From: a virus
Lineage: Duplodnaviria; Caudoviricetes
IMG/VR virus record: IMGVR_UViG_3300028590_000320
Coordinates: 1-53,141 of that record
DNA: 53,141 nt
Direction: 5' to 3' (one strand)
A model generated the notes under the pieces. It had not been told where the DNA came from. It made no database searches and saw only the letters and a list, made by a program, of their open reading frames with translations. A program made the translations under genes and the position numbers. Positions 11,259 through 12,574 of this stretch are shown here, piece by piece. Every line of letters starts with the position of its first letter. The stretch's first letter is position 1.

Positions 11259-11831
11259 ATGGCTCTACCGAACTTGAAAAAACTGCGCACCGATCGACTG
11301 CTTTCTCAGATTCAACTTGGTGAAGCTATTGGCATTTCCTCGCGCACGCTCATGCGATGGGAGGCGGGCCAAGGCGAACCTGGAGCGTCTGAGCTGCTGC
11401 AGATTGCCCGCTTCTTTCAAGTGAGCATTGACCAGCTGGTCGGCGATCTTCTTCCGCCCGAATCGACCGGGGGGTTGCCCAGGGTCGCTGACCTTTCGGG
11501 TCGTCCACTCGACTATTGGGTGGCCCGCACGCGAGGCATACCCGCCGAGATGCTGGAAGATGGCCCGGTTGTGTACGTGCCAGGCGAAGGGCAGGTGCCA
11601 GTACCCGCCTACAGCACTGACCCCTCCCATGCCAATCCGATCATGGAGAGCATGGGAATGCACCTATGCCCTGCGTCATCAGGGGCGACGTTTGATGGCG
11701 AAGTGAAACAGCAGCCCGGCTGGATTGCCCGCTGCGCAGAGAGTTCGAGGGCGGCCTGGGGACGAACGATGCTCGAAGCAGGAATGCGGGCCTACCTGCT
11801 CTTCGAGATCGGCGATCAGGTGCTGACGTGA
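11259..11831 (+). CDS. XRE HTH fused to DUF2591/NinX-like domain
   Basis: LSQIQLGEAIGISSRTLMRWEAG HTH; LSG..LDYWVA...YSTD...PI...G.T.LEA.MRA C-domain. Confidence 0.75.
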   Translation: MALPNLKKLRTDRLLSQIQLGEAIGISSRTLMRWEAGQGEPGASELLQIARFFQVSIDQLVGDLLPPESTGGLPRVADLSGRPLDYWVARTRGIPAEMLEDGPVVYVPGEGQVPVPAYSTDPSHANPIMESMGMHLCPASSGATFDGEVKQQPGWIARCAESSRAAWGRTMLEAGMRAYLLFEIGDQVLT

Positions 11832-11887
11832 TGGGTCACAATGGCCGCGCAATCTGACAAATTTGTTCACTAAAAACACAATTTGTC
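11824..11887 (+). promoter_or_regulatory. Candidate enhancer-binding-protein (PilR-like) sites
   Basis: TGAC-N7-GTCA at 11824-11838, TGAC-N7-TTCA at 11855-11869, ACAATTTGTC at 11878-11887, ~90-150 bp upstream of the sigma54 site. Confidence 0.5.
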
Positions 11888-11974
11888 TCAATTGGCTGGA
11901 GGAATTGCATCGGACTTTGGGGTTTTCACCCATAAAAGCAATCCCTTAGTTCTCAAATTTCGTCGCCATGCGCT

Positions 11975-11990
11975 TGGCACACGTCCTGCG
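11975..11990 (+). promoter_or_regulatory. sigma54 (-24/-12) promoter of pilin
   Basis: TGGCAC-ACGTC-CTGC with exact GG-N10-GC spacing. Confidence 0.8.
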
Positions 11991-12050
11991 GTTACGTAAG
12001 CGCTCCGGGAGAAAGTCTCCTGGCGAAACTCAACCCAACCGAGGATTTTC

Positions 12051-12530
12051 ATGAACCATCGCACTCTCGCTCGCCGCGCTCAAGCTGGCTTTACCCTCAT
12101 CGAATTGATGATCGTTGTTGCGATCATCGGCATCTTGGCTGCAATCGCGATTCCGCAGTACTCGGACTACACATCGCGCACGCGCGCAGCTGGCGCTGCG
12201 GCTGAAATGACGGCCTTCAAGCAGGCTTTCGCAGTTTGCATGTCCGAACAAGGCAATGTGCTCGCCAACTGCGTCACGCTTGGCTCCAATGGAATCCCCA
12301 ATACGCCAACCGCGACGACCAAGAACGTCACGGCGGCAGTCACGATCACCGCTGCTACCGGCGCGATCAACACCACCACGGGTGCTACCGATGCTGGCGG
12401 CGTGGCATTGACCTACATTCTGACCCCGACCATTCCCGCCGCCGGCCAGCCCACCATGGTCTTCACGCAATCTGGCACGGTTTGCAATGCGTCGCGAGGC
12501 CTGAAGCCCGGCCAAGGTGACTGCCCGTAA
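12051..12530 (+). CDS. pilA: Type IVa major pilin
   Basis: Short basic leader, [25 protein letters not shown] prepilin motif, C-terminal disulfide loop [14 protein letters not shown]. Confidence 0.93.
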
Positions 12531-12550
12531 TTTCAGTGTTGACTGAATCG

Positions 12551-12574
12551 AAGCCGCCTTCGGGCGGCTTTTTT
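12551..12574 (+). terminator. Intrinsic terminator between pilin and cI
   Basis: AAGCCGCC-TTCG-GGCGGCTT-TTTT. Confidence 0.85.

Follow-up and report, generated by a model that had tools for sequence, protein, structure and literature searches.

A Variovorax phage carries a major type IV pilin gene with host-like sigma54 control signals between its left operator and repressor

The window analysed here is an entire IMG/VR virus record (IMGVR_UViG_3300028590_000320; 53,141 bases, estimated completeness 96%), and the gene at issue is a type IVa major prepilin gene (12051-12530, plus strand) in its immunity region. By annotation the record encodes a large terminase, portal, major head, tape-measure and tail protein together with an integrase, an S24-peptidase repressor (cI), and cro-like and cII-like proteins, a gene set from which we take the phage to be temperate and siphovirus-like; Variovorax is its probable host genus, and two soil-metagenome runs account for nearly all occurrence of its sequence. 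Five perfect GCAAA-N4-TTTGC operators mark the immunity region, two at the left operator (oL, 10239-10286) and three at the right operator (oR, 13345-13408), the latter between cI and the cro-like gene; allowing one mismatch gave six matches against 1.69 expected, a number reached in 2 of 100 shuffles. The cI gene (12586-13518, probable start at 13359, minus strand; PF00717, E = 7.6e-12) is convergent with the pilin gene. Four genes fill the oL-cI interval, encoding a nucleoside 2-deoxyribosyltransferase, a small protein termed orf119, a protein with HTH_3 and NinX domains, and the pilin, and the operator positions thus place the pilin cassette between oL and cI, where the original prediction, made from the sequence alone, had put it.

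That prediction also named this place the rexAB slot of phage lambda, and the likeness holds as far as position goes: in both phages an accessory gene, presumed to be expressed in the lysogen and to protect it against other phages, lies between oL and cI. Unlike rexAB, however, the pilin gene is on the strand opposite to cI, has its own sigma54-type promoter and terminator with no cI co-transcription, and encodes a structural mimic of a host protein rather than an abortive-infection system. The layout also bears on whether a host pilA has simply been caught inside a wrongly delimited viral contig. Pilin relatives occur in 158 IMG/VR contigs, in some of which the gene does sit at a contig end, but here it lies 12 kb into the 53-kb record, flanked to left and right by phage genes and placed between oL and cI, and the same layout recurs in independent records; such an artefact is refuted by this arrangement and is vanishingly improbable.

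The 159-residue product comprises a 13-residue leader and a 146-residue mature protein. It matches PF07963 (N_methyl; E = 2e-10), and its translation reads AQAG/FTLIE across the prepilin cleavage site, with Glu5 in the mature protein. Across a 42-sequence pilin alignment G13, F14 and E18 are invariant, as are Cys63, Cys74, Cys145 and Cys158, the last two of which probably form the disulfide bounding the D-region. An AlphaFold2 model (predicted local distance difference test score 88.2) has a helix over residues 16-66 followed by strands; its best Foldseek matches in PDB are Neisseria PilE (1ay2, template-modelling score 0.60), Burkholderia PilA and the P. aeruginosa K122-4 pilin, with E values of 0.003-0.8, and type IV pilins are also its best matches in a further comparison with solved structures. 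Leaders of type IVa pilins are usually shorter than 10 residues and their mature proteins about 150 residues long; the chromosomal pilins of Variovorax have 13-residue leaders, as the window pilin does. A profile scan of the window returned this one PF07963 match and none to PF01478, PF00437 or PF00482, and detected no second prepilin motif, prepilin peptidase, assembly ATPase or platform protein. An intact major prepilin with no other pil genes around it, as originally predicted, is thus what the window contains.

Among phage protein families the pilin matches phrog_27437 (E = 3.5e-31), and a tblastn search of 50,697 deposited phage genomes gave no match. Its closest proteins are 92-78% identical, one source naming a Variovorax metagenome-assembled genome, and relatives were found at E ≤ 1e-10 in 138 of 148 Variovorax genomes, the best of them 91, 81 and 78% identical. 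At these three loci DNA likeness to the window is limited to the pilin gene itself, and we therefore regard the copies as chromosomal. The pilin loci of genomes G081 and G143 are syntenic with the pilA locus of genome G052 (L208), which lies downstream of a metallo-beta-lactamase-fold gene and a CHASE2 cyclase gene and upstream of pilY1 and pilW; this chromosomal setting is repeated in a metagenome contig whose pilin is 89% identical. Between the phage pilin and its 91% relative the ratio of nonsynonymous to synonymous substitution rates (dN/dS) is 0.054, with dS near 1.0, and 0.03 for the mature part, the differences being concentrated in the leader peptide. This purifying selection, at a dS of about 1.0, indicates that the phage carries an old, natural Variovorax allele type under chromosomal-like constraint.

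The region upstream of the gene resembles that of chromosomal pilA as well. A sigma54-type -24/-12 promoter, TGGCACacgtcCTGC (TGGCAC-N5-CTGC; 11975-11989, plus strand), stands at -76 from the ATG and is the sole match to the promoter pattern in the window. Taken alone, it is within chance (0.37 matches expected; at least one match in 32 of 100 shuffles). The form TGGCA(C/T)-N5-CTGC stands at -68 to -84 in 18 of the 22 Variovorax pilin genes examined, the four lacking it including two second genes of tandem pairs, and this form is also found in 13 phage-borne cassettes. A promoter had been predicted at this site as an exact match; it is present, but the word exact overstated it, as its -12 element is CTGC rather than the TTGC of the general consensus. 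All five Variovorax genomes tested contain rpoN, and a profile scan of the window found no Sigma54_activat (enhancer-binding ATPase) domain in the phage.

Further upstream, the predicted pair of dyads 31 bp apart was recovered on the plus strand: dyad 0 (TGAC-N7-GTCA; 11824-11838), which overlaps the stop codon of the HTH_3-NinX gene, and dyad A (11855-11869), the phage form of TGACA-N4-TGTCA, with TGTT as its right half. Both dyads and the promoter are conserved in a sister phage (L003, described below), where dyad 0 differs by one spacer change, and sites similar to dyad 0 occur in L012, L015, L016 and L018. A third site, B (ACACAATTTGTCTCA; 11876-11890, plus strand), is conserved among phage cassettes. 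Of the 23 chromosomal promoters scanned (26 loci were given, three of which returned no row), 20 have a TGACA-N4-TGTCA-type dyad at -102 to -112 relative to the promoter, and the phage dyad, TGACAAATTTGTTCA, lies at -120. The TGTT right half is found in 11 of 13 phage-borne cassettes versus 0 of 20 chromosomal dyads. With at most one mismatch, TGACAAATTTGTCA occurs once per genome, always upstream of pilA, in four of five whole Variovorax genomes; a reversed-pattern control gave no match.

Downstream of the promoter, a hairpin in the 5′ untranslated region (5′UTR; CCGGGAGA / TCTCCTGG, 12005-12023, plus strand) is followed by an AACC-rich tract and a ribosome-binding site (12041-12045). Hairpin, AACC-rich tract and leader peptide are common to phage and chromosome, the DNA between them being only about 50% identical; the hairpin is predicted as a consensus structure with weak covariation, one of its nine pairs having changed on both sides. 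The gene ends, as predicted, at its own intrinsic terminator (12550-12576, plus strand; hairpin 12550-12571, then a U-run). The 55-nt stretch that holds it (12531-12585) folds at -24.4 kcal/mol (z = -3.8), and the same hairpin follows many chromosomal pilA genes. Together, the match of enhancer dyad, promoter, 5′UTR and leader to pilA of the host genus supports the view, already part of the original prediction, that the phage pilin would be plugged into host pilin control.

Chromosomal pilA of Pseudomonas is controlled by RpoN and by PilS-PilR, and what the available text of that work describes is similar in kind: a GG-N10-GC promoter, activator sites about 100 bp upstream, and a monocistronic gene with its own terminator (PMC6058289). 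The PilR site features given there, TGT-N11-AGA and GTCT, differ from the Variovorax dyad. At the left edge of the window cassette, a 9-mer is shared between the end of the HTH_3-NinX gene (11810-11831, ...GTGCTGACGTGA) and the end of the gene that precedes pilA in chromosomes (...GTGCTGACTTTCTGA, for example at L188); it may date from the original capture or have arisen by chance.

The upstream neighbour of the pilin gene encodes a DNA-binding protein with an HTH_3 domain (E = 2.7e-12) and a NinX (DUF2591) domain (E = 3.8e-08), here called HTH-NinX (11226-11831, plus strand). Its structural model joins a P22 c2-like helix-turn-helix to a second domain that resembles an uncharacterised Burkholderia dimer (4qyb/4pup); HTH-NinX is a plausible reader of the pilA-type dyads. 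An HTH_3+NinX gene directly precedes a sigma54-type pilin gene in L004, L012, L015, L016, L018, L035, L038 and L072. Scanning viral contigs with the single protein found the sister phage only, and further relatives needed a profile; the profile scan of IMG/VR yielded 10 full-length HTH-NinX contigs, and a pilin gene starts 175-230 bp downstream in all nine that could be evaluated, the tenth ending at a contig edge. Two distant contigs with NinX alone (L373, L374) have no pilin. HTH-NinX is present in 5 of 148 Variovorax genomes, each time with a pilin beside it, and its homologues number 29 proteins at E ≤ 1e-5, the named ones all from Variovorax.

Phages that keep this module intact have HTH-NinX proteins only 53-57% identical, and they are of two backbones: one is the lambdoid immunity slot, and the other a different 65-kb phage type in which the module lies beside phrog_10969, phrog_11362 and phrog_8040 ('head closure'). 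In L012 a small open reading frame (ORF) and an HTH_3+S24 repressor gene come after the pilin gene, and in L016 an HTH_3 repressor gene does. A survey of related prophages, proposed with the original prediction, found other pilin alleles at the same locus; globular domains vary widely among phage cassettes, several elements have two tandem pilins, and none of the 14 phage-borne cassettes read is a broken copy. The immunity slot is not always filled, since six full cI-like prophage loci of Variovorax genomes (L209-L214) gave no pilin by tblastn.

The second pilins of tandem pairs, which follow the terminator (L038, 7998-8501; L072, 8572-9069; genome G059, L384), have leaders of 8-10 residues and no sigma54-type motif, and the chromosomal pair in G059 has a second pilin of this type, with 65.6% identity once the first 30 mature residues are set aside. 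A further arrangement, in L404 (G090:C1, 2557-6948), has four pilin genes in two inverted pairs, with arms 82-95% complementary, flanking a 1.4-kb centre that holds HTH-NinX. Because the repeat is imperfect, it is not a simple assembly palindrome, and it might undergo inversion or gene conversion.

A repressor-like protein always encoded beside the pilin, and a phage dyad that is a variant of the unique pilA dyad, are also what one might expect if the cassette served to lower piliation: extra pilin, or HTH-NinX bound at the pilA dyad, would reduce resident pilA expression or disturb assembly, leaving the cell with fewer pili. The N-terminal segment of the phage pilin, moreover, is that of resident pilins, and it is this segment that PilS senses in Pseudomonas, as the introduction to a study of that genus states (PMC6058289). 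Mere feedback, however, would need neither a full globular domain held at a dN/dS of 0.03 (mature part) nor diverse alleles; truncated pilins would suffice, and the available text on Pseudomonas phages reports such forms (PMC12952977). We therefore consider down-regulation of piliation quite unlikely as the function of the cassette.

Comparison with the sister phage delimits the variable part of the pilin gene. L003 is a provirus in IMG/VR (genome G002), homoimmune with the window phage, whose gene order it shares; the two cI proteins are 95% identical. Its DNA is homologous to window positions 10005-12172 (85%) and 12549-14186 (92%), with no homology between them. This gap (12173-12548, plus strand) covers the part that encodes the globular domain, and it follows that the pilin codons after about residue 41 have been exchanged for those of another pilin in L003. 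The distal tail module is swapped in this pair too, with no DNA match over 39478-47048 and proteins 27-30% identical; the tape-measure proteins are 66-96% identical. Contigs of four soil runs aligned to 10200-13500 gave only short pieces at low depth, together with a pile-up on the conserved pilin N-terminus, and no variant cassette could be read from them.

Lysogens offered the comparison with resident PilA that the original prediction had called for. In all four Variovorax lysogens compared, the prophage pilin agrees with the resident one at 25-30 of the first 30 mature residues but at only 34-47% of the rest: the N-terminal helix is shared and the surface domain differs. Such a pattern fits replacement of a phage receptor.

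Chromosomal pilA loci, in turn, carry traces of phage DNA. Upstream of pilA in G052, 9 kb are syntenic with three other genomes at 79-94% identity; directly 3′ of the pilin gene lies a 233-bp remnant that corresponds, at 89.7% identity, to the phage terminator and the final 199 bases of cI, and beyond this remnant synteny resumes. Because the G052 enhancer, promoter, ribosome-binding site and leader are of chromosomal type, the left crossover must have fallen in the conserved helix-coding part. A shorter remnant stands behind the chromosomal pilin gene of G041, where the terminator and some 57 bases of a cI 3′ end (77% identity) adjoin debris that appears transposase-like from its translation. 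Since a repressor fragment cannot originate in the chromosome, replacement of a chromosomal allele by a phage cassette has occurred at least twice among the 148 genomes. For the G052 pilin allele, the best viral contigs reached 44-49% identity outside the N-terminus, and no phage donor was found among them. The exchange recalls antigenic variation at Neisseria pilE/pilS, where a conserved 5′ part is kept and a variable 3′ part is exchanged by recombination; unlike the silent copies of a single Neisseria genome, donors and recipients here are phages and the chromosomes of different cells.

Breakpoints that fall exactly at the conserved helix-coding part and the terminator, together with phage-derived scars at two chromosomal loci, would suit a selfish passenger that persists through recombination of its arms with chromosomal pilA and benefits neither lysogen nor phage. 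Against such a passenger, the intact module of promoter, sites and partner gene is kept across diverged HTH-NinX proteins and differing backbones, with no decayed version among the 14 cassettes, and we hold this explanation to be very unlikely.

The arrival of cassettes in chromosomes could also reflect a benefit to the host. A pilin acquired by lysogenic conversion might alter adhesion, twitching, biofilm formation, root colonisation, or predator or kin recognition, the phage gaining through the fitness of its host. The phage pilin is constrained like chromosomal pilins and is a natural allele type found in chromosomes, and tandem pilins occur in some elements as they do in some chromosomes. 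On the other hand, the window phage and L003, a close homoimmune pair, differ in both tail module and pilin domain, which recalls competition between phages, although this is one pair only; and the sole experimentally tested precedent, as presented in the available text, is anti-phage (PMC12952977). Host benefit thus seems to us an unlikely explanation.

We favour a different explanation, to which we assign a probability of roughly 0.55: that the cassette encodes a functional phage-borne major pilin ('P-PilA'), likely giving receptor replacement and superinfection exclusion. We infer that the pilin gene would be transcribed in the lysogen independently of cI, by host sigma54 RNA polymerase at the promoter copied from resident pilA, with a putative host enhancer-binding activator acting at the copied dyad. 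Host prepilin peptidase would cleave the phage prepilin, and the host type IV pilus machine would be expected to assemble the product because product and resident pilin have the leader and the first 30 or so mature residues in common. The pilus would then display a foreign surface domain, mixed with the resident one or replacing it, and pilus-specific phages would be kept from adsorbing. Between a conserved left arm of enhancer, promoter and N-terminal helix and a conserved right arm, the terminator, lies the variable part, which the cassette trades with chromosomal pilA and with other phages.

Several points weigh against this P-PilA explanation. The window allele, whose only match at E ≤ 0.01 is PF07963, lacks the match to PF00114 (Pilin) that the L003 (E = 1.5e-15) and G052 (E = 5.9e-13) alleles have. 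The window comes from a soil metagenome, and the comparison with resident pilins was made in other genomes, those of the four lysogens; in so allele-rich a genus, moreover, unlike alleles in four of four lysogens are also expected by chance. Among the 19 sequencing runs listed for the stretch, none is an RNA run. A sigma70-like match (11854-11882; 9 of 12 positions) overlaps the dyads, and since phage and chromosomal dyads differ in a systematic way, the phage dyad may have another reader, such as HTH-NinX; the activator that would bind the dyad is a putative host protein, PilR or other. Finally, the pilus is only a presumed receptor of the window phage and of Variovorax phages in general, and mixed pili might still bind phage.

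A more far-reaching proposal would make HTH-NinX and pilin a mobile two-gene 'receptor replacement' module of Variovorax phages. It combines three claims, and we consider it doubtful that they hold jointly. First, HTH-NinX would silence resident pilA through its perfect palindrome, or tune the phage copy through the TGTT form, so that the prophage allele would replace the resident pilin rather than merely mix with it. Second, phages would collect and deliver pilin domains by way of the conserved cassette arms and be a main driver of pilA allele turnover in the genus, the cI scars at chromosomal pilA recording such deliveries. Third, pilin allele and distal tail module would co-diversify through competition between phages.

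The cassette is of a kind already published, namely prophage pilus components, and the original claim of an undescribed system does not stand. The prophage FimU (P-FimU) of F10-like P. aeruginosa prophages was shown experimentally to replace host FimU and block phage adsorption (Sztanko et al., Cell Rep 2026, PMC12952977). As far as the available text of that paper goes, P-FimU and the window pilin are alike in being prophage copies of a type IV pilus structural protein that keep the parts needed for assembly and diverge at the surface, and in the diversity of their alleles among related phages; in the pair formed by the window phage and L003 the tail module differs as well. Unlike P-FimU, a minor tip pilin, the window gene encodes the major subunit, and it is known here from sequence alone. 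The P-FimU promoter came from a general promoter calculator, with RpoN not mentioned in the sections available, whereas the window cassette copies the host sigma54 promoter together with an enhancer that is unique in the genome.

The same paper notes PilA-like genes in Xylella fastidiosa prophages and in four groups of NCBI phages, for which it proposes a P-FimU-like role (PMC12952977), and a 2008 paper lists the major pilin XF0487 in the Xylella prophage xfp6 (PMC2605562). These resemble the window gene in being major-pilin-like genes of phages, the published ones being about 50% identical to host PilA; unlike it, they are merely listed, without regulatory analysis in the parts available, and the NCBI phage examples are said to be non-temperate. 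PHROGs, in addition, has a 'pilin' moron family (phrog_3433). A literature search for phage- or prophage-encoded pilin as an exact phrase found no paper, and one on pilin islands and bacteriophages gave none that concerned phage-borne pilA, judged from titles and abstracts. Nor did we find one describing copied sigma54 and enhancer control, an HTH-NinX partner, cassette exchange between sister phages, or cI scars, Table S3 and Fig. S6 of PMC12952977, which may be relevant, lying outside the search. The copied control region, the constant HTH-NinX partner, the sister-phage exchange and the cI scars thus appear not to have been described before. The observation behind the original prediction is confirmed, and its interpretation is partly supported.

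Just right of oL lies the nucleoside 2-deoxyribosyltransferase gene (10305-10907, plus strand; PF05014, E = 9.6e-30), homologues of which adjoin a pilin gene in L046 and L068, both contigs without HTH-NinX. The product of orf119 (10849-11208, minus strand) has a signal-like N-terminus ending in LSAGC, as in a possible lipoprotein, and no Pfam match; relatives directly precede the HTH-NinX gene in L003, L004, L015, L016 and L018 (36-85% identity by tblastn), and orf119 may belong to the module as its third member or act separately in exclusion. Elsewhere in the window, a 352-residue protein with a RelA/SpoT nucleotidyltransferase domain (47572-48630, minus strand; PF04607, E = 3.5e-17; phrog_4773, E = 1.3e-105) is encoded between the tail genes and the integrase end, where sister phage DNA matches only the flanks of its gene; it may be an alarmone-synthetase-type toxin or a defence gene. 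The right end of the record holds a gene for an SOS-response-associated peptidase (SRAP; 50429-51202, plus strand) and one for a tyrosine integrase with an Arm DNA-binding domain (51571-52956, minus strand).

Type IV pili are common receptors for phages, and major pilins are among the most variable surface proteins of bacteria; to our knowledge, how major-pilin alleles spread is poorly understood. The cassette described here offers a concrete way for pilins to be exchanged horizontally, carried by the phage, and a tractable system for asking whether replacement of the major subunit protects against phages as replacement of a tip pilin does. It also provides a defined enhancer and promoter pair, along with a candidate regulator, HTH-NinX, that includes a domain of unknown function, in a plant-associated soil genus.

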